Shown in pieces: positions 11,781-40,882 of a stretch of 64,000 nucleotides of DNA. The position numbers were made by a program, and so were the translations under genes. Numbering within the stretch: position 1 is the first letter of the stretch; each line of letters begins with the position of its first letter. Origin of the DNA: Desulfobacterales bacterium (GTDB lineage: Bacteria > Desulfobacterota > Desulfobacteria > Desulfobacterales > JAHDSC01); the NCBI GenBank assembly GCA_040769985.1, contig JAXGJZ010000010.1:6472-70471 (forward strand). The letters are read 5' to 3'. The notes under the pieces are model-generated. The model was not told where the DNA came from, ran no database searches, and was given only the letters and a program-made list of their open reading frames with translations.

Positions 11781-11783
11781 GGC

Positions 11784-18936: not shown

Positions 18937-18991
18937 CAGGGTGTTGAAAAACTGCGCCTGAGGCCGCCATTCAGCGTTGCACGGCTCTCTC
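18937..18991 (-). mobile_element. MITE family A, one end only
   Basis: TTAG|CAGGGTGTTGAAAAACTGCGCCTGAGGCCGCCATTCAGCGTTGC is the reverse complement of the end of the 62567 element. Confidence 0.85.
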
Positions 18992-22274: not shown

Positions 22275-22382
22275 CAGCGTTGCACGGCTCTCTCCAATGC
22301 TCACATATGCTTGAATATGCTGCGCTTGTCGCTTCGCCGCGTGCCTTGCCTGACGGCCTGATTCTTGTTTTTCAACACCCTG
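22266..22382 (-). mobile_element. MITE family A, remainder with the other terminal repeat
   Basis: GCCGCCATTCAGCGTTGC...GATTCTTGTTTTTCAACACCCTG|TTAG; reverse complement of the 50269/62567 element. Confidence 0.88.
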
Positions 22383-22547
22383 TTAGTGCTTCAGAAACAA
22401 CTTCCTATTCCTTTGCCGGTTCCGATCACCGGCCGATGCCGGAGAGCGACTGAAGCAATCCCCGCATAAGACCGCCGCAACCGGCGGATCATGAATTTGG
22501 AAGCGTATGCTCCCGGAACCGATGGCACAGCGGAGGTAAAACGACCA

Positions 22548-23033: not shown

Positions 23034-23177
23034 TGGTAAAGTGAAGAGGGATACCGTGGAGCTTGCCGTATCCTCGGTCGTTTGCCTTTGAATACGACCG
23101 ATGCAATTCAGTTGATTGTTGTCCGTTGTCATTGGTCCGTTGCGACGCGGGAAACTCCAGTGGGAAAGGAAACCTTT

Positions 23178-24815
23178 ATGCCAAAGCTGACAAAAGAATT
23201 ACTGGATACCTATAAAACGCCTGCTTCTCCAGAAACCGGCTACATAAAAGTCGGGATGAATACATGCGGGATTTCAGCGGGTGCGCAAAAAATTTACGAC
23301 GCTTTCGTTCATAAGGTGAAGGAAAAAAATATCCCGATTGAAATAAAAAAATGCGGATGCCTGGGAATGTGTCATGCGGAACCGCTTATTGAAGTTAAAA
23401 TCGGGGGGAAACCGTCGGTTCTCTATGGCCGCCTCGACAGGGAAAAAGCCCTGTCTCTTCTTGAAAACAAAAGTTTGCCTGAGTTTTTAGTAGAGGAAAG
23501 CCCGGGGCAGAAAAAGATCGTTCTCAGAAACTGCGGGGTCATCGATCCCGAAAGAATTGAAGATTATTTAGAAAAGCAGGGGTATCAGGCGATAAAAAAA
23601 TCGATCTTTGAGTTAGGCCCGGAAAAAACCATCGAGGAAATTAAAAAGAGCGGACTGAGGGGACGGGGCGGAGCCGGTTTTCCAACGTGGCGGAAGTGGA
23701 AAAACACAAGAGAAAGCGAATCCTCGGATGATAATCATCATGGCAGGTTCATCATCTGCAATGGCGATGAAGGCGATCCCGGCGCTTATATGGATCGAAG
23801 CGTCCTTGAAGGCGATCCTCATTCCGTAATTGAAGGGATGATGATTGCCGGATACGCGATCGGCAGTTCAACCGGATATTTTTATATCCGCGCGGAGTAC
23901 CCCCTTGCGGTTGAAAGGATTCGCAAAGCGATCGCGCAGTGTTATCGATACGGGTTGCTGGGGAAAAATATTCTTCAATCCGATTTTAACTTTGATCTGG
24001 AAACGAGACTGGGGGCGGGAGCGTTTGTGTGCGGGGAAGAAACGGCGCTTATTGCTTCGATTGAAGGCAGAAGAGGTTATCCGAGACCGCGTCCGCCGTA
24101 TCCCTCGGTCAAGGGATTGTGGGGCAAACCCACCGCCATCAACAATGTTGAGACCCTTGCCAACGTTCCGTATATCATTTTAAACGGAGGCGAAAACTAT
24201 TCAAGGATCGGCACGGGTCAATCAAGAGGCACAAAGGTGTTTGCTTTAACCGGAAAAATTATGAATTCCGGGCTTGCCGAAGTTCCCATGGGAATGACGC
24301 TCAGGGAAATTATCTATAAGATCGGCGGCGGAATCGCGAACAATAAAGAATTCAAAGCGGTCCAGACCGGGGGCCCTTCCGGCGGCATTATTTCAAAGGA
24401 TTATCTCGACACTCCGATAAGCTATGAAAGCTTACAGGAATTAGGTTCCATCATGGGCTCGGGGGGGATGATCGTTATGGACGAGGATGACTGCGCGGTG
24501 GATGTCGCAAAGTTCTTTATGAAATTTTGTTTTGACGAGTCCTGCGGAAAATGCGCGCCTTGCCGGATCGGCACCGCTCAGGCCTTGAAAATCCTGGAAA
24601 AAATCACCAGCGGAATCGGTAGTCACGAAGACTTGGATAATTTGAAAAGGATTTGTCACGCAATGCAAAAAGCCTCTCTCTGCGGGCTGGGGCAAACCGC
24701 GCCGAATCCCTTGCTTTCCAGCCTGAGGTATTTCGAAGACGAATACCTGGAACATATCGAAGACAAAATATGCAGGGCGGGCAGATGCAGGGAATTGATG
24801 AAACGTCCGGAATAA
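23178..24815 (+). CDS. hydB: [FeFe]-hydrogenase beta subunit (NuoF-like FMN/NADH), lacking the C-terminal 2x[4Fe-4S] domain
   Basis: SGLRGRGGAGFPT, CNGDEGDPGAYMDR, GAGAFVCGEETAL, ESCGKCAPCRIG, SLCGLG; ends CRAGRCRELMKRPE. Confidence 0.92.
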   Translation: MPKLTKELLDTYKTPASPETGYIKVGMNTCGISAGAQKIYDAFVHKVKEKNIPIEIKKCGCLGMCHAEPLIEVKIGGKPSVLYGRLDREKALSLLENKSLPEFLVEESPGQKKIVLRNCGVIDPERIEDYLEKQGYQAIKKSIFELGPEKTIEEIKKSGLRGRGGAGFPTWRKWKNTRESESSDDNHHGRFIICNGDEGDPGAYMDRSVLEGDPHSVIEGMMIAGYAIGSSTGYFYIRAEYPLAVERIRKAIAQCYRYGLLGKNILQSDFNFDLETRLGAGAFVCGEETALIASIEGRRGYPRPRPPYPSVKGLWGKPTAINNVETLANVPYIILNGGENYSRIGTGQSRGTKVFALTGKIMNSGLAEVPMGMTLREIIYKIGGGIANNKEFKAVQTGGPSGGIISKDYLDTPISYESLQELGSIMGSGGMIVMDEDDCAVDVAKFFMKFCFDESCGKCAPCRIGTAQALKILEKITSGIGSHEDLDNLKRICHAMQKASLCGLGQTAPNPLLSSLRYFEDEYLEHIEDKICRAGRCRELMKRPE

Positions 24816-24847
24816 ACCGGCCCATTGCAACACAAGGAGCTATACCA

Positions 24848-26626
24848 ATGATTCATGCAAGAATAAACGGGATCCGTGTTGAAGTGGAAGAAGGAACAAC
24901 CGTTCTTGATGCGGCGAAAAAAGCAAATGTAAAAATTCCAACCTTATGCAAGCATCCGGATCTTCCTCCCACCGCCGCTTGCGGAATTTGTATGGTACAG
25001 CTGAAGGGAACCGACAAAATGATACGTTCCTGCTGCACCGAAATTACAGAAGGAATGGATATCATAACTCTTACCCCGGAAATTGTCGAAGTAAGAAAAA
25101 CGGTTCTGGAACTGATTCTGTCCAATCACCCCAATGCCTGCCTGACCTGCGCAAGAAACCAGAACTGCGAACTTCAGTCTCTTGCGGCCGAATTCGGAAT
25201 CAAGGAGGAATCGTTCGGGAAGATATTAAAAAATCTTGAAATCGATGATTCCATAAAAACAATTGTTTTGGAACCGCAAAAATGCATCAAATGCGGAAGA
25301 TGCATTCAGGCCTGTCAGGAAATGCAGAACGTATGGGCTTTATCTTTCGCGGGCAGGGGGCTGGATACCCGGATTGCGCCCGCAGCGGATTTTACACTCG
25401 TCGAATCTCCCTGCGTAAGCTGCGGTCAATGCGCGGCTTACTGCCCGGTCGGTGCGATTTATGTATATGATGACACCGCCAAAGTCTGGGGAGCGTTGAA
25501 TGATCCTTCCAAACACTGCGTTGTTCAAATCGCCCCGGCCGTGCGGGTGGCGATCGGCGAATCTTTCGGCATGGAAAGCGGTGAACTCAAGACCGGAAAA
25601 TTATATACCCTGTTACGAAGAATGGGCTTTCAAGCGGTTTTCGATACCAATTTCGGGGCGGATGTGACGATCGTTGAAGAGGCAACCGAGTTTGTTAAAC
25701 GATTGACAAAGGGGGGAGGGGTATTGCCCTTAATATCGAGCTGTTGTCCTGCATGGGTTGATTTTATGGAAAAATTCCATCCGGATATGATACCCAATTT
25801 TTCCACCTGCAAATCTCCTCATGAGATACTGGCGGCCCTTGCGAAAACATATTACGCCTTACAATTAAATATTCCTCCCTCAAGCATCTTTATGGTTTCG
25901 ATCATGCCCTGCATCGCAAAGAAATTTGAGATTCACAGGAGCCGGGAAATGTTTGTTTCGGGCTATCAGGATGTGAATGTGTCAATCACCACAAGGGAAC
26001 TGGTACGGATGATTAAACAAACGGGAATCGATTTTTCTTCGCTTCCCGACAGTGAACCGGACCATATGCTGGCAGATTACTCCGGCGGCGGAACCATATT
26101 CGGCGTTACCGGCGGTGTGATGGAAGCCGCGTTGAGGTCCATCAGTAGTTTTTTGACCGGAAAACCGCTTGGAAATATCGGATTGAATGATGTCCGGGGA
26201 TTAAAAGGAGTTAAAGAGGCCCGAATTAAAGTGGGTGATTACACCTTAAACGTTGCCGTAGCCCATGGCCTCGGTAATGTGGAATATGTAATCAATAAAA
26301 TAAGAAACGCAAGGGAGAAGGGGGAAGAACCCCCTTACCATTTCATTGAAGTCATGGCCTGCCCGGGCGGATGTATCGGCGGAGGGGGACAGCCGAGAAA
26401 CATTAATGATGAAGTCAGGCGGCTTCGAATAAACGGGCTTTATACGGATGACAGCCATTGTAAATACAGAGACTGCCATGACAACCCCCAGGTGAAACGA
26501 TTATACGCGGAATTTCTGGGTGAATATGGCAGTAAAAAAAGTTATGATATTCTGCATACTTATTACAGGCACAGAAAAGAGTATAAAAGCTACCGGGAAA
26601 CCGAATTTTTAGGCGAGAGCGAATGA
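24848..26626 (+). CDS. hydA: [FeFe]-hydrogenase catalytic subunit (group A, multimeric)
   Basis: AAGGAG RBS; 2Fe-2S, His-ligated HPNACLTC, two CxxCxxC; H-cluster motifs SSCCPAW, MPCIAKKFE, EVMACPGGCIGGGGQP. Confidence 0.95.
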   Translation: MIHARINGIRVEVEEGTTVLDAAKKANVKIPTLCKHPDLPPTAACGICMVQLKGTDKMIRSCCTEITEGMDIITLTPEIVEVRKTVLELILSNHPNACLTCARNQNCELQSLAAEFGIKEESFGKILKNLEIDDSIKTIVLEPQKCIKCGRCIQACQEMQNVWALSFAGRGLDTRIAPAADFTLVESPCVSCGQCAAYCPVGAIYVYDDTAKVWGALNDPSKHCVVQIAPAVRVAIGESFGMESGELKTGKLYTLLRRMGFQAVFDTNFGADVTIVEEATEFVKRLTKGGGVLPLISSCCPAWVDFMEKFHPDMIPNFSTCKSPHEILAALAKTYYALQLNIPPSSIFMVSIMPCIAKKFEIHRSREMFVSGYQDVNVSITTRELVRMIKQTGIDFSSLPDSEPDHMLADYSGGGTIFGVTGGVMEAALRSISSFLTGKPLGNIGLNDVRGLKGVKEARIKVGDYTLNVAVAHGLGNVEYVINKIRNAREKGEEPPYHFIEVMACPGGCIGGGGQPRNINDEVRRLRINGLYTDDSHCKYRDCHDNPQVKRLYAEFLGEYGSKKSYDILHTYYRHRKEYKSYRETEFLGESE

Positions 26627-27847: not shown

Positions 27848-29059
27848 ATGAAAAAGACGGAAAGCAATCAGAAAGCCGGGTTGTTGAAAGCTCAAATGGA
27901 TGCGGAACGAATCGAATGTCTGGAGACGGTTGCTGCGAAATTACGTGAACGGGTGAAAGAGCTTACCTGTCTTTATGGCATCTCGCAGGTGGTTTCGGAC
28001 CCGGATCGATCGTTTGAGCAGAAGCTTATGCAGGTTCTCATGCTGCTTCCCCCGGCCTGGCAATTCCCCGCAAGCACCTGCGCAAGGATTGTTATTGATG
28101 GAGATACTTTTCAAAGCCCCAATTTTCAGGAGGGAAAGCACAAACAGTATGCCGAAATATCCGCCATGGACAAAAACAGGGGAATGGTAGAAATTCACTC
28201 TGCGGAAGAGGGCTTTTCCTCCCAGAAAAATCCTTTTCTTGAAGAGGAACAGAGCCTGCTGAATAACATTGCAGGCCAGGTCGCATTGATGATCGAACGC
28301 AGGGAGAGTGAGGAGACAAAATCCGAACTTCAGGAACATCTTGTTCGAGCCGCTCGTCTGTCTGAAATCGGTCGGCTTGCCGCTGGAGTGGCGCATGAAC
28401 TCAATGAACCCCTGAATACGATTCTTGGATTTGCTCAATTGGTCCAGAAAACTCAGGGATTGCCGGATACGGCCAAAGAAGACTTGAAAAAAATTACGGA
28501 TGCATCTCTTCAAGCGCGTTCGATTATACGGGAACTTTTAATTTTCGCCCGCCAGTCTCCTCACTGCGTCACGGCGATAAACCTGAACCGGATCGTGGAA
28601 GACGAACTGGGGCTGCTGGAATCGATGGGCCTTAAGTCTGCCGTAGAGGTAAGGCGCATCCTCGATCCGAATGTTCCGGAGATTGTTGCAGACAAATCTC
28701 AGATCCTTCAGATTCTTTCCAATCTGGTGGTCAATGCTATCCAGGCCATGCCCGACGGCGGTATACTTACCATTCGGACGTCATTCGATTCGTCGGACGT
28801 CTCACTGGCGGTTGAGGATACGGGAATCGGTATGGACGAAGATGTGAAGGACAATCTATTCGTTCCATTTTATACCACGAAGGACGTGGACCAGGGAACC
28901 GGTTTGGGGCTTGCGGTGGTACATGGCATTGTAACATCACATGGCGGCAGGATTGCTGTTGAAAGTGAGTCGGGGCAAGGGTCTCGTTTTATCATAACCT
29001 TGCCGAGGAAACCGGGTACCATACGGGAGGCGAGCAAAGGAAATGACGGCACGGGATAA
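27848..29059 (+). CDS. NtrB-type sensor histidine kinase with N-terminal GAF-like domain
   Basis: AGVAHELNEPL (H box), NLVVNA, DTGIGM, PFYTTK, GTGLGL. Confidence 0.93.
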   Translation: MKKTESNQKAGLLKAQMDAERIECLETVAAKLRERVKELTCLYGISQVVSDPDRSFEQKLMQVLMLLPPAWQFPASTCARIVIDGDTFQSPNFQEGKHKQYAEISAMDKNRGMVEIHSAEEGFSSQKNPFLEEEQSLLNNIAGQVALMIERRESEETKSELQEHLVRAARLSEIGRLAAGVAHELNEPLNTILGFAQLVQKTQGLPDTAKEDLKKITDASLQARSIIRELLIFARQSPHCVTAINLNRIVEDELGLLESMGLKSAVEVRRILDPNVPEIVADKSQILQILSNLVVNAIQAMPDGGILTIRTSFDSSDVSLAVEDTGIGMDEDVKDNLFVPFYTTKDVDQGTGLGLAVVHGIVTSHGGRIAVESESGQGSRFIITLPRKPGTIREASKGNDGTG

Positions 29060-30398
29060 AAGCATACTAGTGGTGGATGATACGCAAACCGCTATTGAGG
29101 TGATTGAGAGAAATCTGATCTCGGTCGGGTATCGGGTCTACACGGCTACAAACGTGGCCGATGCTATTCATCTGCTCGAAAACGTTCCAATCGATATCGT
29201 AATTACCGACTATAAAATGCCGAAATTGAGCGGACTCGATCTGATACGCCATGTCCGGGAAAATTACTATGGTACCGAGGTGATCATGATCACCGGCTAT
29301 GCATCCGTAAAAGGCGCCGTGGAAGCAGTAAAAATGGGAGCAGAGGAATACCTTCCGAAACCTTTCACGGATGAGGAACTCTTTGCCGCCGTCGAACAGG
29401 CTCTGGCAAAACAGGAACTTCACAAGGCCGTGCTTGACGGAAAGCCTCATGTCAGCCCGAATTCTTATGGCATTCTTGGAAAATCAAAATCGATTCGAAG
29501 GGTTCTGAGAGACATCGAGAAAGCATCCGAATCGACCGCTACCGTTCTTGTTTTGGGGGAAAGCGGAACCGGCAAGGAACTGGTGGCGAGGGCGATCCAT
29601 TACAGCAGCGGTCAGGCCTCCGCACCTTTCGTTCCGGTAAACTGCGGGGCGATACCGGAGAGGTTACTGGAAAGCGAGCTGTTTGGGTATGTAAAAGGGG
29701 CTTTTACCGGCGCAAACGAGTCCCGTGCAGGTTTCTTCCAAACCGCTGACGGGGGCACGATCTTTTTGGACGAGATCAATGAAATGAACCCCGCCATGCA
29801 GGTTAAACTTCTACGGGTTCTCCAGGACAAGCAGGTATTCATGATCGGGGCCAGGAAAGCCCATAAGATCGACGTAAGGATCGTGGCTTCGAGCAACAAG
29901 GACCTGCGAAGCCTTGTGGAAAAGGGTGTATTCCGTGAAGATTTGTTTTTCCGGTTAAATGTTATAACGATTAAGGTTCCTCCTTTACGAGAGCGCAGGG
30001 AGGACATCGCCCTTTTGCTCTCTCATTTTGCCGCCAAATTCGCCGATGAGCTCGGAAAACCCGTTCTCGTTTTTTCCGACGAAACCTTACAGGTACTTAT
30101 GAATTATTCATGGCCTGGCAATATTCGGGAATTGGAGAACCTTGTTCAGCGGATGGTGATCATGTCGGAAAACCATGTAATCAAGGTTCCCGACTTGCCC
30201 GCGATCATGCGATTTTCGGCCGTATCCTCTTCCGCGCCCTTCCGGTCTCTGGTTGAAGAGGAATCCGCCTATATTCGCATGGTTCTTGCAAGTGTGGGAG
30301 GTAACAAATCCCTTGCCGCAAAAATACTTCGCATTGATCGGAAGACCTTAAGAGAAAAATTGAAAATCGATCGTAATTCTTCCGATCGAACCGCATAA
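29043..30398 (+). CDS. NtrC-type sigma54 response regulator
   Basis: REC domain; GESGTGKE, ESELFG, GAFTGA, FLDEI, WPGNIREL; C-terminal HTH. Confidence 0.95.
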   Translation: MTARDKSILVVDDTQTAIEVIERNLISVGYRVYTATNVADAIHLLENVPIDIVITDYKMPKLSGLDLIRHVRENYYGTEVIMITGYASVKGAVEAVKMGAEEYLPKPFTDEELFAAVEQALAKQELHKAVLDGKPHVSPNSYGILGKSKSIRRVLRDIEKASESTATVLVLGESGTGKELVARAIHYSSGQASAPFVPVNCGAIPERLLESELFGYVKGAFTGANESRAGFFQTADGGTIFLDEINEMNPAMQVKLLRVLQDKQVFMIGARKAHKIDVRIVASSNKDLRSLVEKGVFREDLFFRLNVITIKVPPLRERREDIALLLSHFAAKFADELGKPVLVFSDETLQVLMNYSWPGNIRELENLVQRMVIMSENHVIKVPDLPAIMRFSAVSSSAPFRSLVEEESAYIRMVLASVGGNKSLAAKILRIDRKTLREKLKIDRNSSDRTA

Positions 30399-30599
30399 AA
30401 ACTCTTCGGCCGGTGATGCAATTTTTCCCGACTGGTGAGATCCTCCCCACCGAATTATTTTCCTATATCCCTTCCGTTACAAATCGGATGCCCTCGGATT
30501 TCCATCGCGCAAAAATATTTTGCATAAATTACAATGTATTATAAAAAAAGTATCCCAATCGTTGGATCAACACCCTACCGGTATACTTCCATGATCCAA

Positions 30600-30615
30600 T
30601 GGCACATATCTTGCG
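30600..30615 (+). promoter_or_regulatory. Sigma54 promoter of the 30829-36336 operon
   Basis: TGGCAC-ATATC-TTGCG, consensus spacing, just downstream of an NtrC-type gene. Confidence 0.8.
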
Positions 30616-30828
30616 GAAAGAAATTTTCCAATTTCTGAAGGCTACCCCGTTGCTTACCTGAAGAAATGACCTTTCCGGTCTGATCGTTCGTTCTTAACCC
30701 CGAAGCGGGGAAGAGGGGTGTTATAGCCCTTGGAACTTGCCAATCGTTGATTTTTCCAAACGGCCGGCCGGAAAAATCTTCGTGGCTTTATTGTTTGCAA
30801 GGAGCCTTGCAAGATAAAAGGAGACGAT

Positions 30829-31128
30829 ATGACTCAAGATGCATCGAATAAAGGAATTTGTTCGAACTGTAATTTTGCTTCAACGTGCCGACATTCTTTG
30901 AGTGGTGTGCAGTTTTGTGAGGAATATGAAATCGCCGATTCAATAAAAAGATTCGAGGGAAGGCGACTCGACACAAATAAGGCGGGGTTGTTGAAAATAA
31001 ATCCGCAAACCACTGCAAGTCAATTTCCGGATTGTGTCATGGGGCTTTGCATCAACTGCCTCCACCGAGAGACTTGCGGGTTGCCCAGACCGGAATCCGG
31101 TGTCTGGCACTGCGAAGAGTACGAATGA
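30829..31128 (+). CDS. Small Cys-rich protein with an internal duplication
   Basis: AAGGAG RBS; GICSNCNFASTC..QFCEEYE and GLCINCLHRETC..WHCEEYE. Confidence 0.8.
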   Translation: MTQDASNKGICSNCNFASTCRHSLSGVQFCEEYEIADSIKRFEGRRLDTNKAGLLKINPQTTASQFPDCVMGLCINCLHRETCGLPRPESGVWHCEEYE

Positions 31129-31169
31129 TTGAAACCCATAATAATTGCCAACCCATATTCTGAGGAACG

Positions 31170-32063
31170 ATGGACATGAACTTTGAATGCATCGATACCA
31201 TTATTAAGAACCATCAGGGCGAACCGGGATCGATGATTTCGATTCTGGAAGATATTCAGGATCGTTATCATTATCTTCCCAAGGAGGCGCTGAGAATGGT
31301 TGCCCGAAAAACCGGGATCAGCCTGGTCGATATTTACGGGGTAGCCACATTTTACAAGGCCTTCAGTCTCCAGCCCAGGGGGAAACACCTGATATCCGTC
31401 TGCCTGGGAACGGCATGCCATGTGCGTTCCGCTCCCGCCATTGTCGAAGAATTTACCCGACAGTTGGGTATCGGCCCCGGGGAAACCACCGAGGACAAGG
31501 ATTTTACCCTTGAAACTGTGAACTGCCTGGGAGCATGCGCTCTGGGACCGATCGTGAAGGTCGATGGCTGCTACTTCTCCAATGTAAAACGATCGGACGT
31601 GTCAAGGATTATTCAAAAGGCAAAATCGGGAATTGAGAATGCTTCCATGGAATCGGATTCAAAAGATTTTCCCATCTCGGTCTGCTGCCCGCGTTGTGGT
31701 CATGATTTGATGGATGAAAAGCATCCGATCGAGGGTTATCCATCCATCTCTCTGGAAATCAGCTTTAATGGAACACGGGGATGGGGGAAATTTTCCGGCC
31801 TTTCCGGAAGTCATCTTGTGGAATTCGAACATCCTGCTTCTCCCGAAGTTCAGTTAAAATTTTACTGCCCGCACTGTCGTGCCGAGCTGATTGGAAATTC
31901 ATACTGCATGGATTGCGGTCAACCCATGGCCGCGCTGAAGATTCCAGGAGGCAGTGTTCTTCTTGTCTGTTCGCAATGGGGGTGCATGAATCGTTTCCTC
32001 TGTTTAAACGGGATGGATTCTTCCGTTGAAACCAATACGGAATCGCTATCTACAGGAAACTGA
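31170..32063 (+). CDS. NuoE/HydC-like 2Fe-2S subunit with C-terminal Cys-rich extension
   Basis: GVATFY, VCLGTACHV, NCLGACALGP; extension CPRCG, CPHC, CMDCG, CSQWGC. Confidence 0.88.
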   Translation: MDMNFECIDTIIKNHQGEPGSMISILEDIQDRYHYLPKEALRMVARKTGISLVDIYGVATFYKAFSLQPRGKHLISVCLGTACHVRSAPAIVEEFTRQLGIGPGETTEDKDFTLETVNCLGACALGPIVKVDGCYFSNVKRSDVSRIIQKAKSGIENASMESDSKDFPISVCCPRCGHDLMDEKHPIEGYPSISLEISFNGTRGWGKFSGLSGSHLVEFEHPASPEVQLKFYCPHCRAELIGNSYCMDCGQPMAALKIPGGSVLLVCSQWGCMNRFLCLNGMDSSVETNTESLSTGN

Positions 32064-32064
32064 T

Positions 32065-33912
32065 ATGGAACGACTGAGATCCAGTGAAGAATTCGAGACT
32101 TTACGGCAGCATCTTTTTTCTACGATCAGACCGGAAATTCCGATGGTTGTCATCCCTGCCGGCACCTGCGGCCAGGCGAGCGGTGCGGAGAAATTGATCC
32201 GTACCGCCCAGCGTGAAATTCTTGCAAAGAAATTACAGGAAAAGGTTTTTTTGAGAATTACAGGATGCCATGGTTTTTGTGAGATGGAACCTTCGGTGCT
32301 GATCGAACCGTACCGGACATTCTACCCCGAACTGGATGCCGACGGCATGCAACGAATCATCCATGCATTGGCGGATGGAAAAATGGTTGAAGATCTCCTT
32401 TATTTCGATCCATCCACCGGGGAAAAAATAGAAAAGCAGGACGACATTCCGTTTTTCCGCCATCAGTCCAGACTGCTTCTGGCAAAAAACGAGAAGGTCG
32501 ATCCACTCAATATCTATGACTACATAAAAAATGGCGGATATCTGGCCTTTTCCAATGTGTTGAAGAATATCCGTCCGGAAGCGGTAATCGATGAGGTTAA
32601 GAGATCCGGCCTTCGCGGCCGGGGCGGGGCTGGATTCCCCACCGGCATGAAATGGAAATTTCTGGCTGATGCCGAAAACAAGAATGGAAAATATATCGTG
32701 TGCAACGCCGATGAGGGGGATCCCGGCGCATATATGGACCGCAGTCTGCTGGAAGGAAATCCGCACAGTATCATCGAGGGGATGTTGATCGGTGCCTATG
32801 CCACGGGAACCGATTCAGGAGTAATTTATGTCCGCAGCGAATATCCTCTTGCCATCAAACACCTGACGGTTGCCCTGAAGCAGGCACGTCATACCGGATT
32901 GCTCGGTACCGATATTCTCGGAAGCGGTTTCGGTTTTGACATCTCCATCGTAAAGGGCGCCGGCGCTTTTGTCTGCGGGGAAGAAACGGCATTGATGCGC
33001 TCCATCGAAGGCAGGATGGGAGAACCTCGGCAGCGGCCTCCGTTTCCGGTCGAGAAGGGGATTTATGGAAAACCCACCCTGATCAACAATGTCGAAACCT
33101 GGGCCAACATACCGGTCATCATGACAAACGGTGCGGAAAAATATACTGGAACCGGGAGCATCAATTCCGGGACGAAGATTTTCAGCCTTGTGGGCAAGAT
33201 AAAAAATACCGGACTCGTCGAAGTGCCCATGGGCACTCCGATTCGTAAGGTTCTCTATGAAATCGGTGGAGGCCAGGCCGACAGCACGGGTATCAAGGCC
33301 GTTCAAACCGGCGGGCCGTCCGGAGGCTGCATTCCGTCCTCTCTCTTTGAGATGCCCATCAGTTATGAGAGTTTTGCGGAGGCCGGATCAATCATCGGCT
33401 CGGGCGGTATGATCGTGATGGATGAAAACACCTGTATGATTGATGTGGCCAAATATTTCATGAACTTTTTGAAAGACGAATCATGCGGCAAGTGTTTTAC
33501 CTGTCGTAAGGGCACTCAGAGAATGCATGAGTTGCTCGAAGATATCTCTTCCGGAAAGGGAACCATGGAGCACCTGAAACTGATGGAGGAACTGGCCATC
33601 GTCATGAAGGATACCGCGATGTGCGGCCTCGGTCAGACCGCACCGAACCCCGTTCTTTCCACGCTCAAATATTTCAAGGATGAATATATTGCACACATAG
33701 AAAACAAGCGGTGTCCCGCCGGCGTATGCAAGGCGCTGATCCGTTTTTCCATCAATGAAAACTGCACCGGGTGCGGCGCATGCGCAAGGATTTGTCCGGA
33801 AAACGTCATCATGGGTGAGAAAAAGGAGCGCCATGTGATCGATTCGGACCGATGCAGCCGGTGCGGTGCCTGCAGGAGCGTGTGTAAATTTGAAGCAATC
33901 GACGTCATCTGA
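32065..33912 (+). CDS. NuoF/HydB-like (BfuB-like) FMN/NADH subunit with C-terminal 2x[4Fe-4S]
   Basis: TGCHGFCEMEP, GRGGAGFPTG, NADEGDPGAYMDR, RPPFP, GGPSGG, ESCGKCFTC, CTGCGACARICP, CSRCGACRSVC. Confidence 0.93.
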   Translation: MERLRSSEEFETLRQHLFSTIRPEIPMVVIPAGTCGQASGAEKLIRTAQREILAKKLQEKVFLRITGCHGFCEMEPSVLIEPYRTFYPELDADGMQRIIHALADGKMVEDLLYFDPSTGEKIEKQDDIPFFRHQSRLLLAKNEKVDPLNIYDYIKNGGYLAFSNVLKNIRPEAVIDEVKRSGLRGRGGAGFPTGMKWKFLADAENKNGKYIVCNADEGDPGAYMDRSLLEGNPHSIIEGMLIGAYATGTDSGVIYVRSEYPLAIKHLTVALKQARHTGLLGTDILGSGFGFDISIVKGAGAFVCGEETALMRSIEGRMGEPRQRPPFPVEKGIYGKPTLINNVETWANIPVIMTNGAEKYTGTGSINSGTKIFSLVGKIKNTGLVEVPMGTPIRKVLYEIGGGQADSTGIKAVQTGGPSGGCIPSSLFEMPISYESFAEAGSIIGSGGMIVMDENTCMIDVAKYFMNFLKDESCGKCFTCRKGTQRMHELLEDISSGKGTMEHLKLMEELAIVMKDTAMCGLGQTAPNPVLSTLKYFKDEYIAHIENKRCPAGVCKALIRFSINENCTGCGACARICPENVIMGEKKERHVIDSDRCSRCGACRSVCKFEAIDVI

Positions 33913-34053
33913 TGTCGTTTTGTTAATGAAAGACGTCGAAGTGTGTTTTCGAATGAAAAATCAGGATGTTCCCTAAGATCGAGCAATCCGGAAGAATGAC
34001 CGAAAAATGGAGAAACGAGATTTCAACCAAGAAAGAGAATTTGAGGTAACCAC

Positions 34054-34728
34054 ATGATTACCCTTACGATTAACGGATTGAAGGTTCAGGTGGAGGAAGG
34101 AACGACCATCCTGGAAGCGGCGCGGTTTCTTGGATTTCCGATACCGACGCTTTGCCATCAAGAGGGGCTTTCCCCGTATGGCGCATGTCGGCTCTGTGTT
34201 GTGGAGATTGGTGAGGAACCGAAATCAAAACTGGTTTCTTCCTGCACCTATCCGGCAGAGGAAGGCCTCGTGGTCAGAACGGGATCCAAGAGGGTTGTAA
34301 ACGCCCGCAAGATGATCATCGAACTTCTTCTGGCATCCTGCCCCCAGTCAAAGACCATTCAGGATCTGGCATCGGCCTATGGCGTCCGCCGGCAGCGTTT
34401 CCGACAGGAGCATGAGGACTGCATACTCTGCGGACTGTGCGTGCGAATGTGTTCCGAGCAGATGATGGCGAAGGCCATCGGATTTCGCGGTCGGGGCAAA
34501 GAACGCAGTGTCGGCACTCCTTTTGATGTGCAGCCCGATGTGTGCAGGCTTTGCGGCGGTTGTATGTATATCTGCCCGGCCTGTTCGCTTCGGTGCACGT
34601 ATAACGAGCCGGACAAGGCAATCTGCAATGCCTGCGCCAACCTGAACCCACCATGCATTCAAAAAGAACGGTTTAACGACCTGATGTGCTATATGTCCCC
34701 ATGTGTCGCCTGTGAAATCGATCATTAA
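34054..34728 (+). CDS. NuoG/HydA N-terminal-like Fe-S subunit without a catalytic domain
   Basis: IPTLCH..GACRLCVV..SSCT (2Fe-2S), CILCGLCVRMC, CRLCGGCMYICP, extra Cys-rich tail. Confidence 0.88.
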   Translation: MITLTINGLKVQVEEGTTILEAARFLGFPIPTLCHQEGLSPYGACRLCVVEIGEEPKSKLVSSCTYPAEEGLVVRTGSKRVVNARKMIIELLLASCPQSKTIQDLASAYGVRRQRFRQEHEDCILCGLCVRMCSEQMMAKAIGFRGRGKERSVGTPFDVQPDVCRLCGGCMYICPACSLRCTYNEPDKAICNACANLNPPCIQKERFNDLMCYMSPCVACEIDH

Positions 34729-34752
34729 ATGCCATAAAGGAGTGAAGATAAT

Positions 34753-36336
34753 ATGATAGTTTCTACGATCAATGCATCAGCCGCAACGCTTACAAAAAAC
34801 AGAACGGAAGATTCGGTCGTGCCCACTTCGGGCATGTGTGCGACCTGTGTGGATGGTTGTATCGGGATGTGCGAAATCGGCAAGTCTGCATACAGAGGAC
34901 ACGAAGTTATCTATCCTCAACCATTCGGCGTGATCACTACTGCCGGTCAGAAACGATATCCCGTCGATTATTCACATTTTAACATCATGGGAAGCTGCAC
35001 GGGGGCTCACGGGATAGAGGCCGACAGCGACAAAGCAATATTTTCGAACGTGAGACTGGAAGTAACGATCGGAAAGGATAACGGCATTAAATTCCGGCGT
35101 CCGTGGATTATTCCCGGAATCGGCTCAACGGCCATTGCAAAAAACAACTGGGAGGGGCTCGCGATTGGTTCGGCACTGATGGGTACGGGGCTTACCATCG
35201 GAGAAAATGTCGTGGGCATGGATCCCGAGTCGGTAATAAAAAATGGACGGGTGGTGGATACGGCGGACCTCAAGAGAAGAGTAAAATTATACCGGGATTT
35301 TCAGCGGGACGGTTATGGTGCCATCATCGTGCAGGCCAACATCGAGGACGGCCGTCTCGGCGCGCAGGAGTATGCGATCGAAAAACTTGGCGTGGAATGT
35401 GTGGAAATCAAATGGGGTCAGGGAGCCAAGGACATCGGCGGAGAAGTCAAGATTCCGAATCTGAAAAGGGCCCAGATGCTTGCCACACGGGGATATATTG
35501 TTCTGCCGGATCCATTCGACGAAAACGTGATTAAATCTTTCGAACGCGGCGCTTTCAAGGAATTTGAACGTCATTCCCGCGTAGGCATGGTTTCGGAGGA
35601 ATCCTTTGCCCGAAGAATCGAGGAATTGCGGACCGCGGGAGCAAAGTATATATTTCTTAAAACCGGAGCTTACCGACCCGCCGATCTTGCGAGGGCTCTG
35701 TCTTTTGCTTCCAAATGTCGATTGGATTTGCTGACGGTCGACGGCGCGGGCGGGGGGACCGGAATGAGTCCGTGGAGAATGATGAATGAATGGGGGGTTC
35801 CACCGGTGGAGCTGCATTCTCTGCTCGTGCAATACGCCTCCCATCTAGTCGGAAAGGGCGAATACGTGCCGTCTCTGGCGCTGGCCGGAGGCTTTACTTT
35901 TGAAGACCAGATATTCAAGGGACTTGCAATGGGCGCTCCCTTCGTAAAGCTCATCGGCATGGCCCGGGGCCCCATTGCGGCTGCAATGGTTGGTAAGACG
36001 ATCGGTCGCACCATCGATGACAGGCAGGTTCCTGTCTATATCGAACGTTTCGGCAATTCAAAAGATGAAATTTTCGTGACCGCTTCATCCCTTCGAAAAG
36101 AGCTTGGAGATAAGCATTTTGAAAAACTTCCCACCGGCGCGTTAGGGCTCTATACATATTATGAGCGTCTCAGCCAGGGTCTGAGTCAGATTATGGCGGG
36201 AAGCAGAAAGTTTTCGATATCGCATATCAGCCGGAGCGACATTGCGTCTCTTACAAAAGAAGCGTCCCAGGTGAGCGGTATCCGCTATATCATGGATGTG
36301 GACAAAGAAGAGGCCCTGAATATCCTCGACAGCTGA
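34753..36336 (+). CDS. Stand-alone FMN-binding glutamate synthase family protein
   Basis: AAGGAG RBS; N-terminal CATCVDGCIGMC, EIKWGQGAKDIGGE, TVDGAGGGTG, LAGG, GMAR; no amidotransferase domain. Confidence 0.88.
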   Translation: MIVSTINASAATLTKNRTEDSVVPTSGMCATCVDGCIGMCEIGKSAYRGHEVIYPQPFGVITTAGQKRYPVDYSHFNIMGSCTGAHGIEADSDKAIFSNVRLEVTIGKDNGIKFRRPWIIPGIGSTAIAKNNWEGLAIGSALMGTGLTIGENVVGMDPESVIKNGRVVDTADLKRRVKLYRDFQRDGYGAIIVQANIEDGRLGAQEYAIEKLGVECVEIKWGQGAKDIGGEVKIPNLKRAQMLATRGYIVLPDPFDENVIKSFERGAFKEFERHSRVGMVSEESFARRIEELRTAGAKYIFLKTGAYRPADLARALSFASKCRLDLLTVDGAGGGTGMSPWRMMNEWGVPPVELHSLLVQYASHLVGKGEYVPSLALAGGFTFEDQIFKGLAMGAPFVKLIGMARGPIAAAMVGKTIGRTIDDRQVPVYIERFGNSKDEIFVTASSLRKELGDKHFEKLPTGALGLYTYYERLSQGLSQIMAGSRKFSISHISRSDIASLTKEASQVSGIRYIMDVDKEEALNILDS

Positions 36337-36623
36337 TGAAAAAAACGGATCTTCACCGGAGGAAGCCGCCAGTTTCATCTTTTTTTGAATCCCGCGGCTT
36401 CCGATCGGTTCGTGCGGGGTACGGGTTTGATTTTTTTGACATTTAATGGACACACAGTTTTAGAGGCTACATGGTCGGCGCGAAGAGAGTCGCTGCGAGG
36501 GTAGCCATTGGAATTGTGTTCGATATGAAGATTTATCCCCTCCTTGTGGCGTTGACTCCGTCTCCCCCCTTCAACCCTGACTGACTCCTGGCTTCTCACG
36601 GGTTTCCCAGAGTCCAACGAGTT

Positions 36624-37706
36624 TTATAGCAAGTATGCGGCTTCCAATGTTTCGCAGTTGCGGAAAATTTTATATCCCTTATCATTCAACGGGTAATCCC
36701 AGGATCCGCTCTGATGGACGATTTTTCCGCCAAACCCGGTCTTAAAACGGTAGAGTCCATAAAAGGGATCATCCGGATCTTTTTTCGGTGAAACCGCCCC
36801 CATATCATATCGCAGACACCCCTTGGCCTTTGCAAGCTGTATGGCCGTCCAATGGATTGCGTAAGGCGCCATAAAATTTCTTTTATCATTCGAAGATGCA
36901 CCGAACAGGTATGTTGCCGCCCGGCCGGAAATCACGATGATCGCTCCAGCGAGCAGGTCGTGATCGTGGCGGGCGAGAAGAAAAAGAATCTCGCAGGAAT
37001 CGGGATGCGAGGATAACGCATGGAACAGCGCGGAAAAGTGTCTGTACTCACAAAGAGGAAAGTGGTTACGTTCCGCTGTCTGCCGGTACAGTTCATAGAA
37101 GGCGGGAAGCAAATCTGGTGATGCATTGAACACATGGATATCTTTTCTAAGAGCCAGGCGGATATTATAGCGGGTTTTGGGTTTCATATTCGACATGATT
37201 TCTTCTTCGTTTCGATTCAGATCGAGGACGAATCTGTCGGCAAAGGTAAGATTGAACATGGCCTTTCTCAGGTTCCATGACTTCGTGCCGAAATTCATTC
37301 GTAACTCTTGCAGCCTCGGTTCCGGACATTCAAATGACTCGAACCGGGAGGAAGCCCCGGCCGTTTTAACCGAATAGGGTGATTCCCAGGGCAGATCATA
37401 ACGGATAAAGGCTGTTCCCGGATCCAAATGCCTGCTTATTGCCATGGAGAGAGCCTCCAGAAAAATGCCGTAATGATCCGGGTCCGGACAGAATTCCGGC
37501 CCCTGTGGAACATACGCCATGGAGATTCCGGGCAATGAGGTCTTTGCCAATACAAGGACGTCGCCGTGTGATCCTGAAAAAGTAAAATCAAAAGCCAGTG
37601 ACTTCCAGCCGAGGATTGATTTGACCGCACCCCAAAATGCGGTCTGAAAAATAATTTCCGTAGGAATAACCTTTTTGGCTTCCTTTTGTTTCAAATGTAT
37701 TTTCAT
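36624..37706 (-). CDS. FemAB/FemX-like aminoacyl-tRNA-dependent peptidyltransferase
   Basis: FQTAFWG, YVPQGP, MKPKTRYNIRLA, TYLFGASS, YDMG, GLYRFKTGFGG. Confidence 0.88.
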   Translation of the reverse strand: MKIHLKQKEAKKVIPTEIIFQTAFWGAVKSILGWKSLAFDFTFSGSHGDVLVLAKTSLPGISMAYVPQGPEFCPDPDHYGIFLEALSMAISRHLDPGTAFIRYDLPWESPYSVKTAGASSRFESFECPEPRLQELRMNFGTKSWNLRKAMFNLTFADRFVLDLNRNEEEIMSNMKPKTRYNIRLALRKDIHVFNASPDLLPAFYELYRQTAERNHFPLCEYRHFSALFHALSSHPDSCEILFLLARHDHDLLAGAIIVISGRAATYLFGASSNDKRNFMAPYAIHWTAIQLAKAKGCLRYDMGAVSPKKDPDDPFYGLYRFKTGFGGKIVHQSGSWDYPLNDKGYKIFRNCETLEAAYLL

Positions 37707-39109: not shown

Positions 39110-40882
39110 TCAAGCGATAGGCATTTTCCTGAAAAGTGCTCGTCGGGAGATGCCCAAAAGTTCCGCGGCACGGGTCCTGTTACCGCACGTCTGTCGAAGA
39201 GCTTTTGAGATAAGCGACTTTTCCAGATCTTGAACCGCATCGCGAAGATTGAATTGTGGTGCAATTGCGGATGCTCCGGATTGCGGATCGGGTGCTAAGA
39301 ATTCGAGATGGCCAAGGGTTACATATCGTTGCAAGACATTTCGCAACTCACGAACGTTGCCGGGCCAGTTGTACTCCATGAGAGAATCCATGATACGGCC
39401 GGGAAACCTGGATATTTCGGAAGGAATTTTCATTTTCCGTAAAAAATGTTCCACCAGCAGTGGGATGTCCTGCCTGCGATTGCGTAACGGCGGCAACTGT
39501 ATTTGTATTACCTGGATGCGGTAGAAAAAATCATTGCGCATTTGTCCGCTGTTGACTTTGTCGCTTAACGCAGTATTCGATGCCGATATAATGCGAAAAT
39601 CGGCTGAAGCGGTTTCCGTGTTTCCTATTGGGCGGTATCCCCCTCCTTCAATCGCCCTTAGCAGCTTGGTCTGCATATGAATGGTTAATTCGCTGACTTC
39701 ATCAAGAAACAAGGTCCCGCCATCGGCCATATCCAGATAACCTGGAGAATCGGCATGGGCACCGGAGAATGCTCCTTTACAATGGCCGAAAAATTCCCTT
39801 TCGAACAGGGTTTCCTGGATGGCGCCGCAATTCACCGCAACAAACCGTTTGTTTTTTCTGTCGCTATGGTCGTGTATCGCGTGAGCAACCAGTTCTTTGC
39901 CGGAACCGGATTCGCCGAAAATCGCAACATTTGCGTCTGTAGAAGCGGCCTTGAGAATCAGTTCATACACCTCCTGCATGGCCGGAGAGCGGCCGATAAT
40001 ATCTCCCAGGCGATATCGTTCTTTCAATGAAGATCGCAACACTCGGTTTTCGTTATTTAAAAGCTCCGTCATCCGTTGCGCGGCGATCTGTTGCTCCTTG
40101 ATTTCAGTTATGTCTTTGAATGTCGAAAGCAGGGCCGGTTGTCCCTTAAAAGTAATCGGACTGTGACAAACCTGAATCCAAAATGTCTTTTCCGATCGAT
40201 CGAGATAGTGAACTTCCTCAACTTTAGTCTCGATAATACCGTTCGTTATGGCCCCATAGAGTCGGACGATTTCATTCGCGTCACCATGAAGCGGATTGTG
40301 CACCAACTCATCGAGCATGGTTTCTGCCGAATCCACATGGAACATCTTGCAAAATGCCGGATTTACGTAACGGAAACGGTCATTTTGTACCAAAGCGACG
40401 CCTTCGGCAACCTGTTCGGTAAGCACCCGATAGCGTTCTTCACTTTCTTTGAGTGCTTCTTCCGACCGTTTTAGCCAAAGAACCTTGCTCAAACGTTCAC
40501 CGATGGCTCTCAACAAGCGGTTTTCCTCTTCTAAAAACGGGGTGCCATCCAGATCCGGAGGCGTTTGGATATAATAGACATCCACATCTCCGACATGTTT
40601 GCCGTTTAGAATGATTTTCGTATTCTGCCGCCAACGCGTTGCCATGAAATTCTTTGAAGTATATTCCCGACCATCCAGTGTGATCCTGGCGCAGGCATTT
40701 TCATGATATTGCCACGCGGTCGGAATCAGTTCAACGGCGCGGTTCATTATCCACGATAACGATACGTCCTGATTTTCAAAAAGATTGGAAATGCCATACA
40801 GGCAATTCAATTCCTTGATCCGTTCGGTAAGGGCGTTTGCCGTGGCGGGAGTCTGAAACGGCATGCGATAATCTTTATTCAT
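39110..40882 (-). CDS. One-component sigma54 activator (GAF-like, PAS, AAA+, HTH)
   Basis: ERIKELNCLYGIS, PAS, GESGSGKE, GAFSGA, FLDEV, WPGNVREL. Confidence 0.93.
   Translation of the reverse strand: MNKDYRMPFQTPATANALTERIKELNCLYGISNLFENQDVSLSWIMNRAVELIPTAWQYHENACARITLDGREYTSKNFMATRWRQNTKIILNGKHVGDVDVYYIQTPPDLDGTPFLEEENRLLRAIGERLSKVLWLKRSEEALKESEERYRVLTEQVAEGVALVQNDRFRYVNPAFCKMFHVDSAETMLDELVHNPLHGDANEIVRLYGAITNGIIETKVEEVHYLDRSEKTFWIQVCHSPITFKGQPALLSTFKDITEIKEQQIAAQRMTELLNNENRVLRSSLKERYRLGDIIGRSPAMQEVYELILKAASTDANVAIFGESGSGKELVAHAIHDHSDRKNKRFVAVNCGAIQETLFEREFFGHCKGAFSGAHADSPGYLDMADGGTLFLDEVSELTIHMQTKLLRAIEGGGYRPIGNTETASADFRIISASNTALSDKVNSGQMRNDFFYRIQVIQIQLPPLRNRRQDIPLLVEHFLRKMKIPSEISRFPGRIMDSLMEYNWPGNVRELRNVLQRYVTLGHLEFLAPDPQSGASAIAPQFNLRDAVQDLEKSLISKALRQTCGNRTRAAELLGISRRALFRKMPIA

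Follow-up and report, generated by a model that had tools for sequence, protein, structure and literature searches.

A candidate Bfu-type electron-bifurcating cassette with a glutamate synthase-superfamily flavoprotein in a Desulfobacterales genome

The Bfu (HydABC-like) enzymes are the closest described relatives of the system treated here, a cassette of five genes in a 64,000-nucleotide stretch of DNA from a Desulfobacterales bacterium (assembly GCA_040769985.1, contig JAXGJZ010000010.1; hereafter the window, to whose positions all coordinates refer unless another contig is named). In the main text of Schut et al. 2022 (PMC9304861), the BfuB subunit is defined by NuoF-FMN, SLBB, NuoF-4Fe4S and ferredoxin-type 4Fe-4S domains, and BfuC is of the NuoE type. 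Cluster B2 of BfuB has the ligands C438, C476 (mostly Thr), H525, C531 and C536; the histidine is absent from non-bifurcating homologues, in which the clusters B2 to B5 are missing, and HydB-like proteins of non-bifurcating enzymes do exist. Type 2 Bfu enzymes carry the third-substrate site on extra subunits, and 18 of the 57 Bfu clades distinguished there are uncharacterised. As to the low-potential branch, Xiao et al. 2025 (PMC12018979) show that ferredoxin binds and is reduced at the C-terminal ferredoxin-like domain of the B subunit.

The cassette joins a NuoE-, NuoF- and NuoG-like module to a flavin mononucleotide (FMN)-binding barrel protein of the glutamate synthase superfamily and to a small cysteine-rich protein. 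An earlier note on this DNA, made from its letters alone, had put it forward as a candidate new electron-bifurcating complex. No published description of a NuoEF or Bfu module with a GltB-like FMN subunit turned up in our full-text literature searches. The words “glutamate”, “GltB” and “Glt” are absent from the main text of Schut et al. 2022, whose supplementary tables may list the cluster, and passages of PMC6037941, PMC6338057 and PMC6349859 contain nothing relevant to such a complex. That the proteins form one complex, that electrons are bifurcated, which substrate is used and in which direction the enzyme runs are all inferred from the sequences. In the most general terms, the cassette probably encodes a redox enzyme that has not been described before and is connected with glutamate or nitrogen metabolism. 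That this is a single Bfu-type enzyme with the FMN protein as catalytic subunit is, in our view, quite likely. The glutamate couple as its substrate is a tentative assignment that we rate clearly below even, and for the combined reading, which is a Type 2 Bfu enzyme whose third couple at the FMN subunit is most likely 2-oxoglutarate plus ammonium/L-glutamate, the balance falls just short of even.

The Bfu module and its gene neighbourhood

Together with its regulators, the cassette spans positions 27848-36336, all genes being read in forward direction. Its first gene (30829-31128) encodes the small cysteine-rich protein, which has 99 amino acids and two four-cysteine repeats of the form GLCxxCx5C...CEE[YF]. 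It is followed by the genes for a NuoE/BfuC-like subunit with a [2Fe-2S] site (31170-32063; PF01257, E 1.6e-48 on residues 8-151) and for a NuoF/BfuB-like NADH/FMN subunit that is recognised by Pfam and NCBIfam. The open reading frame (ORF) of the latter covers 32026-33912, and its start probably is the ATG at 32065, because relatives align only from residue 10-14 on. The gene for a short, NuoG-N/HoxU-like BfuA of 224 amino acids with Fer2_4 and a Fer4 dicluster in Pfam (34054-34728) precedes the last gene, which encodes the FMN protein, a triosephosphate isomerase (TIM)-barrel protein of 527 amino acids and the PF01645 Glu_synthase superfamily (34753-36336). The gaps between the five genes are as short as 41, about 1 (with the NuoF-like start at the ATG at 32065), 141 and 24 bp. 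Since the next downstream gene belongs to the FemAB family and lies on the opposite strand, the operon should end at 36336. A weak terminator-like hairpin with a T-run is found behind it on the forward strand by consensus scan only (36407-36437), and terminator-like sites are not enriched in the region 30300-36800 (10 versus 7.2 +/- 2.4 in shuffles).

By sequence criteria, the module belongs to the Bfu family. In Pfam, BfuB shows the domains Complex1_51K, SLBB (E 1e-5, just under the gathering score), NADH_4Fe-4S and twice Fer4; along the chain, an N-terminal thioredoxin-like domain, the FMN site, an N3-type [4Fe-4S] site, a B2-type string and a C-terminal 2x[4Fe-4S] ferredoxin-like domain can be distinguished. 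The strings DPGAYMDR, RPPFP, GGPSG and CPAGVC and the C-terminal clusters, on which the earlier note had based its assignment of a bifurcating-type NuoF-like subunit, were all found, and BfuB and BfuC agree with the sequence definition of the family by Schut et al. 2022. The B2-type string keeps the published spacing: H557-x5-C563-x4-C568 and C470, four of the five ligands, stand at a constant offset of 32 residues from H525, C531, C536 and C438 of Schut et al., and these four residues and the B1 cysteines are invariant in all 63 cassette sequences compared.

In BfuC, C78, C83, C119 and C123 and eight C-terminal cysteines are invariant in 56 sequences; the protein has a C-terminal extension of 140 amino acids, unmentioned in the earlier note, with weak double-zinc-ribbon matches at residues 228-260. 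BfuA possesses one [2Fe-2S] site, two CxxCxxCxxxC sites and eight further C-terminal cysteines, all of them invariant in 24 sequences. It lacks any H-cluster or molybdopterin domain, as had been noted before and as Pfam bears out. Neither Pfam nor the alignment of the 24 sequences revealed a His-ligated cluster motif or a catalytic domain in BfuA, which therefore fits the description of Type 2 enzymes. Its NCBIfam matches to HoxU and to the N-terminus of FeFe_hydrog_A6 are below cut-off.

The arrangement of these genes is conserved far beyond the window. In a scan with one genome per species, at least 596 loci encode a relative of the FMN protein; neighbourhood counts were made on the best 80, and whether a gene is present was judged by tblastn with the window proteins wherever the upstream sequence is long enough. 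In all 75 loci testable for it, the NuoG-like gene stands before the FMN gene; the NuoF-like gene lies upstream of the FMN gene in 61 of 61 and the NuoE-like gene in 58 of 58, so that within this sample the FMN gene never occurred away from the module. Two loci without a NuoG match have less than 130 bp of upstream sequence each. Across phyla, the FMN proteins of the best 80 loci are 77-88% identical to that of the window, and the BfuA orthologues 69-84%; median identities are 80% for the FMN protein, 79% for BfuA, 65% for BfuB, 52% for BfuC and 34% for the cysteine-rich protein. The record titles name Planctomycetota, Thermodesulfobacteriota or “Deltaproteobacteria”, Zixibacteria, Ignavibacteria, Bacteroidota, Chlorobiaceae, Acidobacteria, Fibrobacterota, the anammox bacterium Scalindua and others. 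A cassette-type BfuA (at least 77% identity) is present in 12 of 401 sampled genomes of the window's own phylum and in none of 12 sampled genomes of the same order. This patchy occurrence, together with some 80% identity between phyla, points to a horizontal spread of the cassette. In divergent sub-families, whose FMN proteins are 55-68% identical, the gene again adjoins NuoE/F/G-like genes. One such divergent cassette (L124; contig C30, 5174-11886) has two FMN-family genes that flank the NuoE/F/G-like genes on one strand. An arrangement of this kind goes far beyond chance and supports the view that the five genes belong together as a conserved unit under its own control, which is what the earlier note had supposed and proposed to check by a synteny survey.

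Could these genes nevertheless encode two separate enzymes that happen to be neighbours, a BfuABC-like NADH:ferredoxin module that lacks a catalytic unit and an FMN enzyme that works on its own with ferredoxin? Among 30 loci of FMN-protein paralogues, inspected with flanks of 1.5 kb, 28 have no NuoEFG neighbours, and the FMN family therefore appears to be able to use a free electron carrier. However, adjacency was kept in all 75 testable loci, with short gaps and despite the wide horizontal spread, BfuA and the FMN protein are the two best conserved proteins of the cassette, and a catalytic domain is missing from BfuA itself. We therefore regard two independent neighbours as very improbable. 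When a complex of BfuA with the FMN protein was predicted, the score was 0.00 each of the two times, which is uninformative either way.

The C-terminus of BfuB, where ferredoxin would be reduced, occurs in two forms. Among 63 related cassettes with a nearly complete BfuB, 19, including that of the window, have the ferredoxin-like C-terminus (form A). In the other 44 (form B), it is replaced by a GltD/NfnL-like domain of about 450 amino acids with Fer4_20-type clusters and a GxGxxG fold for flavin adenine dinucleotide (FAD)/NAD(P)H, and the H-x5-C-x4-C string is retained. The earlier note had remarked that no glutamine amidotransferase, GXGXG or GltD gene lies in the window, and this is borne out: tblastn with the genome's own glutamate synthase proteins detected neither GATase_2 nor GXGXG nor a true GltD in the window, the sole match being a weak one (28%) to a pyridine-nucleotide-oxidoreductase sequence at 6714-7244. 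As a trait of the system, however, the absence of GltD does not hold, given the fused domain of form B. In a quick maximum-likelihood tree of the BfuB cores, all 63 proteins fall into one clade (support 100), apart from the two other HydB-like proteins of the genome, and the two forms are interleaved; 7 changes are needed, and the starred branches force at least 4. A repeated exchange of a ferredoxin site for a pyridine-nucleotide/FAD module would amount to a swap of the low-potential partner, and this natural exchange offers a ready-made experiment on the wiring of the low-potential branch in Bfu enzymes. In the same genome, a NuoE-like gene, a gene for a NuoF-GltD fusion of 1040 amino acids and a group-A6 [FeFe] hydrogenase gene (900 bits) are found together on contig C2 (3111-8563); the NuoF-GltD fusion is a general module and not specific to the cassette. 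The NuoF-GltD gene of one Pirellulales metagenome-assembled genome (L006, 4401-4403) contains an in-frame TAG, which represents an assembly error or a pseudogene.

The at least four swaps between ferredoxin-like and GltD-like domains also show that the BfuB C-terminus is exchangeable, and this feeds a different explanation, according to which the complex is an NADH-dependent reductase that does not bifurcate. NuoE/F/G-like proteins would then simply replace GltD as electron input, and the BfuB C-terminus would be an optional second input without energetic coupling. As the third couple is probably more positive than NAD+/NADH, coupling is not thermodynamically required. In addition, the N-terminal [2Fe-2S] ligands of BfuB are incompletely conserved, which weighs against bifurcation: only two cysteines of this domain are fully invariant (C81, C85), and C48 is present in 70% of the sequences. 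HydB-like proteins of non-bifurcating enzymes are known from the account of Schut et al. 2022 (PMC9304861). According to the same source, however, it is just the clusters B2 to B5 that non-bifurcating homologues do not have, whereas in the cassettes the B2 string is invariant in 63 of 63 sequences and none of the 19 form-A sequences departs from the B3/B4 cysteines, the eight cysteines of the pair of CxxCxxCxxxC motifs at the C-terminus. Because of this invariance, the low-potential branch appears to be under selection, and we consider an uncoupled reductase improbable, if less so than two separate enzymes.

The FMN protein and its possible substrate

The FMN protein is presumed to be the catalytic subunit for the third substrate. 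Its sole family match is PF01645 (61 bits versus a cut-off of 20.4), which is best over no more than residues 279-400, equivalent to positions 185-303 of the 369 in the profile. When the alignment of its family was compared by hhalign with the FMN domain of the genome's canonical GltB, a probability of 96.9% and an E-value of 2e-10 were obtained at 25% identity over 280 columns, with the strings GR(L/F)G, VEIKxGQGAK, R246 and DGxGGGTGxSP being aligned. Via this canonical domain, Q223, K226 and R246, which are invariant in 24 orthologues, align with Q969, K972 and R992 of ferredoxin-dependent glutamate synthase (Fd-GltS), an alignment that is remote and of moderate weight; the position of Fd-GltS Q978 is occupied by Glu. 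We take Q969, K972 and R992 (Fd-GltS numbering) to be residues of the synthase site; a literature search for the names of GltS active-site residues yielded no paper. The N-terminal motif C29-x2-C32-x3-C36-x3-C40 is kept in most full-length family members, including paralogues, and presumably holds an entry cluster. Of the description as a GltB-like FMN protein with an N-terminal CxxCxxxCxxxC, the motif stands, but the protein is only a remote relative of GltB, and because it has neither the 3Fe-4S motif nor the accompanying GltS domains, the name glutamate synthase is not appropriate for it.

The family as a whole is small, with 173 representatives at 50% clustering (E <= 1e-30). Its paralogue type is common: 217 of the 401 sampled genomes of the phylum have a family member (E <= 1e-30, cassette orthologues included). 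A search for versions of the FMN protein lengthened by fusion (924-2635 amino acids) found none at E <= 1e-20, which is weak evidence. Apparent fusions of paralogues, seen as long open frames in three high-GC genomes, were rejected, as they reflect stop-poor flanks and not longer genes.

A confident AlphaFold2 model of the FMN protein (mean predicted local distance difference test score 83.7, predicted template modelling score 0.87) has Fd-GltS as first Foldseek match (E 3e-10), with lactate and glycolate oxidases close behind, and the top 50 matches in VIA-align are type-2 isopentenyl diphosphate isomerase (IDI-2), flavocytochrome b2 and glycolate oxidase with Z-scores of 25.4-27.5, GltS not being among the matches listed. 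The modelled fold indicates an FMN barrel, no more. It is at this point that one has to consider the same Bfu-type complex with another substrate, with another 2-oxo acid, another 2-imino acid, a cyclic imine and a 2-hydroxy acid as candidates, since the homology to GltS is remote and the fold is no closer to GltS than to alpha-hydroxy-acid oxidising FMN enzymes and IDI-2 (Z 25-27.5). On the other hand, no family other than PF01645 was matched, QGAK and DGxGGGTGxSP are retained, and DGAGGG would fall at the position where alpha-hydroxy-acid oxidases have their catalytic histidine. In these oxidases, a catalytic His/Arg pair follows strand 6. The FMN protein matches their fold at Z 25-27, gave no match to FMN_dh of Pfam at E <= 0.01, and has no His in its aligned GltS-type string DGAGGGTG.

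What would link the FMN protein to glutamate in particular is its recurrent neighbourhood. Genes for ELFV-family (glutamate-type) dehydrogenases adjoin the FMN gene in 7 of the 80 loci, from several phyla, and in 5 of these 7 the gene follows directly on the same strand; 4 of 8 ORFs called as ELFV were confirmed by Pfam. The genome of the window itself encodes a paralogue of the FMN protein (48% identical; contig C9, 9247-10827, minus strand) directly upstream of an NADP-specific GdhA (7799-9178, minus strand; 733 bits versus a cut-off of 536). Upstream of the paralogue lies the gene for a GAF-ANTAR regulator (11408-12145, minus strand), whose GAF domain matches those of NifA and PtsP. In a divergent cluster of another genome, NuoE/F/G-like genes face genes for an FMN homologue, an ELFV dehydrogenase, a GAF-kinase and an NtrC-type regulator. 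If the enzyme acted on a different substrate, glutamate dehydrogenase (GDH) neighbours would reflect a shared pathway or regulon only; but three separate sub-families show neighbours of the ELFV dehydrogenase, GAF-ANTAR and NtrC types again and again. Given one or two GDH genes per genome, chance would yield far fewer such GDH associations, and their recurrence suggests a link of the FMN protein to glutamate, even though this is a minority pattern. The paralogue/GdhA pair, an apparent operon (contig C9, 5129-15504), is flanked by two large proteins with PPDK_N domains, one of them with a receiver domain.

Several observations weigh against glutamate as the substrate. First, GDH neighbours are found in a minority of the related loci (7 of 80), and among the 30 paralogue loci with 1.5-kb flanks, GDH occurs beside only one, which is that of this genome. 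Second, the same genome encodes a complete split glutamate synthase (GOGAT) beside glutamine synthetase on contig C15, consisting of a GATase_2 protein, a Fer4 plus Glu_synthase protein (434 bits) and a GXGXG plus GltD-like protein, and of 10 further genomes of the phylum that carry the cassette, 9 have a canonical-type PF01645 match of at least 190 bits. The cassette thus is not the standard or only glutamate synthase of the cell, and a second glutamate-forming enzyme is not obviously needed. Third, QGAK, the arginine and GGTG do not fix the substrate, because they are in part FMN-binding residues throughout the superfamily, and the stretch that carries the 3Fe-4S cysteines in GltS contains no cysteine at all in the FMN protein in the hhalign alignment. 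Fourth, neither phmmer nor the family profile of the FMN protein retrieved any GltS chain from the PDB; the profile found only designed TIM barrels there, over one beta-alpha unit, which is uninformative. Fifth, amidotransferase, central and GXGXG domains are encoded neither in the window nor by recurrent neighbours in the flanks of the 80 loci. Sixth, the GltD-like domain of form B is no evidence of glutamate chemistry, since in this genome a NuoF-GltD fusion also serves an [FeFe] hydrogenase. The close structural matches to lactate and glycolate oxidases and to the isomerase point in the same direction. A glutamate-linked role of the FMN protein, as originally put forward, is borne by the recurrent GDH neighbours and held back by the cell's own full GOGAT and the remote kinship to GltB. 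Weighing both sides, we regard a substrate other than the glutamate couple as somewhat unlikely within a Bfu-type complex, and retain glutamate as the tentative assignment.

Sigma-54 control and neighbouring loci

The cassette is preceded by the genes of a two-component system, i.e. a histidine kinase with HisKA and HATPase_c domains and a cytoplasmic sensor (27848-29059, forward strand; Pfam) and an NtrC-type response regulator with Response_reg, Sigma54_activat (E 4e-69) and HTH_8 domains, the latter a Fis-type helix-turn-helix (29043-30398, forward strand; Pfam), whose ORF overlaps the end of the kinase ORF. The NCBIfam matches of this activator to AtoC and NtrC are under the cut-offs. In the spacer of 430 bp between the regulator gene and the gene for the small cysteine-rich protein lies a sigma-54 -24/-12 element, TGGCAC-N5-TTGC (TGGCACATATCTTGC; 30600-30614, forward strand), which was found by direct reading and by a pattern scan. 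All elements of the arrangement that the earlier note had described, a sigma-54 promoter downstream of a kinase/NtrC pair and ahead of five co-oriented genes, are thus present. The strict sigma-54 pattern occurs only three times in the whole window (twice on the forward and once on the reverse strand), and no excess of sigma-70-like sites over the shuffle expectation was seen in 30300-36800. Among related loci, an element of sigma-54 type that agrees at 9 or more of 10 positions, with GG and GC required, is present in 26 of 41 intergenic regions (16.9 kb), as compared with 3 matches in 64.6 kb of control coding sequence, and the kinase is kept upstream in 37 of 53 and the NtrC-type regulator in 40 of 54 testable loci. 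The best explanation is that 30829-36336 forms one sigma-54-dependent operon that is switched on by the adjacent kinase/NtrC-type pair.

Four metatranscriptome runs from a single anaerobic-digester study yielded contigs that are identical to the window and touch each of the five genes in part. One of them (30648-30899) lies downstream of the sigma-54 element, another (33895-34117) bridges the 141-bp gap between the NuoF- and NuoG-like genes, and a third (34656-34898) bridges the junction of the NuoG-like and FMN genes. Such contigs may hold DNA and cannot prove starts, strands or a single transcript, which limits what they say for the operon, and they support its expression in a supplementary way only; the kinase/regulator part from 28712 to 30535 is uncovered by them, which is not readable as silence.

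The small cysteine-rich protein matches no Pfam or NCBIfam family, and its nearest Atlas clusters are unnamed hypothetical proteins. Its eight cysteines are invariant across 15 orthologues, it is encoded in 43 of 56 testable related loci, and it probably binds a metal or an iron-sulfur (Fe-S) cluster.

Large proteins with PPDK_N domains recur beside FMN-family genes, downstream in the loci L028, L050, L060, L072 and L079 and upstream of the paralogues L096-L116. The N-terminal sensor of the kinase, about 170 amino acids in length, matches no clear family (GAF_3 only faintly, E 0.085), and a family search with the N-terminus of the PPDK_N proteins gave no usable match; yet the kinase sensor resembles the N-termini of those PPDK_N proteins that adjoin related FMN genes (27-35% identity), and the two may form a shared ligand-sensing module. 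The PPDK_N protein of L050 has a C-terminal nucleotidyltransferase domain.

Further regulators and redox genes are found nearby. A second sigma-54 activator, with PAS domains, is encoded a few kb downstream of the operon (39110-40882, reverse strand), and the genome contains many NtrC-type paralogues. Just upstream of the kinase gene lies a HydABC-type [FeFe] hydrogenase cluster (22491-26626, forward strand), with a NuoE-like gene (22491-23033), a gene for a NuoF-like protein of 577 amino acids (23082-24815) that keeps H-x5-C-x4-C without a C-terminal ferredoxin-like domain, and a HydA gene with H-cluster domain (probable start near 24848, end at 26626), all on the forward strand. The roughly 4 kb before this cluster (18470-22490) contain no ORF of more than 106 amino acids and no Rfam match. 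This ORF-poor region is bounded by a direct repeat of 145 nucleotides (18653-18797 and 22118-22262, 93% identical) and by an exact repeat of 29 nucleotides (18963-18991 and 22266-22294), the second copies of both repeats lying just upstream of the hydrogenase operon.

Proposed mechanism and comparison with known systems

How could a Bfu-type enzyme with the FMN protein as catalytic subunit work? NADH electrons would enter at the FMN of BfuB, which together with BfuC would constitute the bifurcating core. One branch would lead via the N3-type cluster and the clusters of BfuA, which would function as an Fe-S wire, to the N-terminal cluster of the FMN subunit, its FMN and finally the third substrate, while the other would proceed via BfuC and B2 to the C-terminal 2x[4Fe-4S] domain of BfuB and to ferredoxin. 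In form B, this second branch would reach the FAD of the GltD-like domain and NAD(P)+ instead of ferredoxin. If the third substrate is 2-oxoglutarate, its amination could proceed via 2-iminoglutarate, as in the synthase site of GltS, and the overall reaction would be 2 NADH + 2-oxoglutarate + NH4+ + oxidised ferredoxin -> 2 NAD+ + glutamate + reduced ferredoxin, or its reverse, which is equally allowed on paper. The 2-oxoglutarate + NH4+/glutamate couple is more positive than NAD+/NADH, and therefore NADH would be the mid-potential donor, the amination being exergonic and the reduction of ferredoxin endergonic. Ammonium limitation would shift the couple to more negative values, and low-potential electrons could then drive an ATP-independent assimilation. 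It is a speculation that this would fit the NtrC-type/sigma-54 switch. A substrate cycle of GDH and the Bfu-type enzyme that acts as transhydrogenase was considered and rejected, as by our own reasoning from known potentials the net reaction would be uphill.

If the glutamate couple is indeed the substrate, energy-limited anaerobes would gain reduced ferredoxin or save ATP during ammonium assimilation. The cassette would then add to the Bfu enzymes a third-substrate module of a new family that is tied to central nitrogen and carbon metabolism and not to H2, formate or aldehydes. The identity of some 80% that its catalytic protein retains throughout argues for a strong constraint, frequent transfer and a function that is important in anoxic sediments and digesters. 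In its widest form, the idea would be that of a widespread, horizontally mobile and ATP-independent route between ammonium and glutamate in anaerobes, in which NADH bifurcation is coupled to 2-oxoglutarate amination, or the reverse, with a low-potential branch that was swapped at least four times between ferredoxin and NAD(P)(H), and under sensor kinase/sigma-54 control. We offer this wide version as a doubtful one, less probable than the substrate assignment on which it builds.

Among the known systems, lactate dehydrogenase-EtfAB and other bifurcating or confurcating enzymes for couples more positive than NAD+/NADH offer a functional analogy, since in the logic proposed for the cassette, too, NAD(H) and ferredoxin are tied to a couple at the 2-oxo-acid level. 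Neither the proteins nor the flavin sites are related, the one being an Etf FAD and the other a Bfu FMN/Fe-S core. N-methylglutamate synthase MgsABC is a split GltS-like enzyme. An identity with it was rejected, since the cassette has no GATase_2-like or GXGXG partners. With glutamate synthases, i.e. GltBD, Fd-GltS and the split archaeal type, the FMN protein shares an FMN barrel with a partial PF01645 match and the aligned QGAK, arginine and DGxGGGTGxSP, electrons would reach the FMN through Fe-S clusters in both cases, and form B even has a GltD-like partner. In contrast to them, the cassette is devoid of amidotransferase, central and GXGXG domains and of the 3Fe-4S motif, and has the N-terminal four-cysteine motif instead, and the FMN protein is only about 25% identical to the canonical domain of the genome. 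The NuoE/NuoF/short NuoG-like trio resembles the HoxEFU diaphorase of bidirectional [NiFe] hydrogenases, with residues 2-179 of BfuA matching HoxU at E 6e-35 and BfuC matching HoxE at E 1e-40, but the scores are under the NCBIfam cut-offs, no hydrogenase subunits follow, and BfuB has the additional B2 and C-terminal clusters.

Another comparison is with the NfnABC/Stn transhydrogenases of the Bfu family (PMC12018979, PMC11829005, PMC10482914). Like them, form B combines a BfuBC core with a GltD/NfnL-like FAD domain, and the C-terminal ferredoxin-like domain of the B subunit that handles ferredoxin in NfnABC (PMC12018979) is present in form A of the window. The difference is that NfnABC carries the NfnL-like domain on subunit A and keeps the ferredoxin-like domain of B, whereas in form B the GltD-like domain replaces the ferredoxin-like one; moreover, the cassette has a further FMN subunit. 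The best fit are the Type 2 Bfu enzymes such as Wor-Bfu, Por-Bfu and Bam, as they are described in the main text of PMC9304861, since the BfuB domains with the B2 string, a NuoE-like BfuC with a [2Fe-2S] site, a short BfuA that has one [2Fe-2S] and two [4Fe-4S] sites but no His-ligated cluster, and a separate catalytic subunit are common to both. What sets the cassette apart from them is the catalytic subunit itself, which is a GltS-superfamily FMN barrel with an N-terminal four-cysteine motif, and beyond this it adds an eight-cysteine, zinc-ribbon-like domain in BfuC, eight extra C-terminal cysteines in BfuA, a small protein with two four-cysteine repeats and a dedicated two-component/sigma-54 control.

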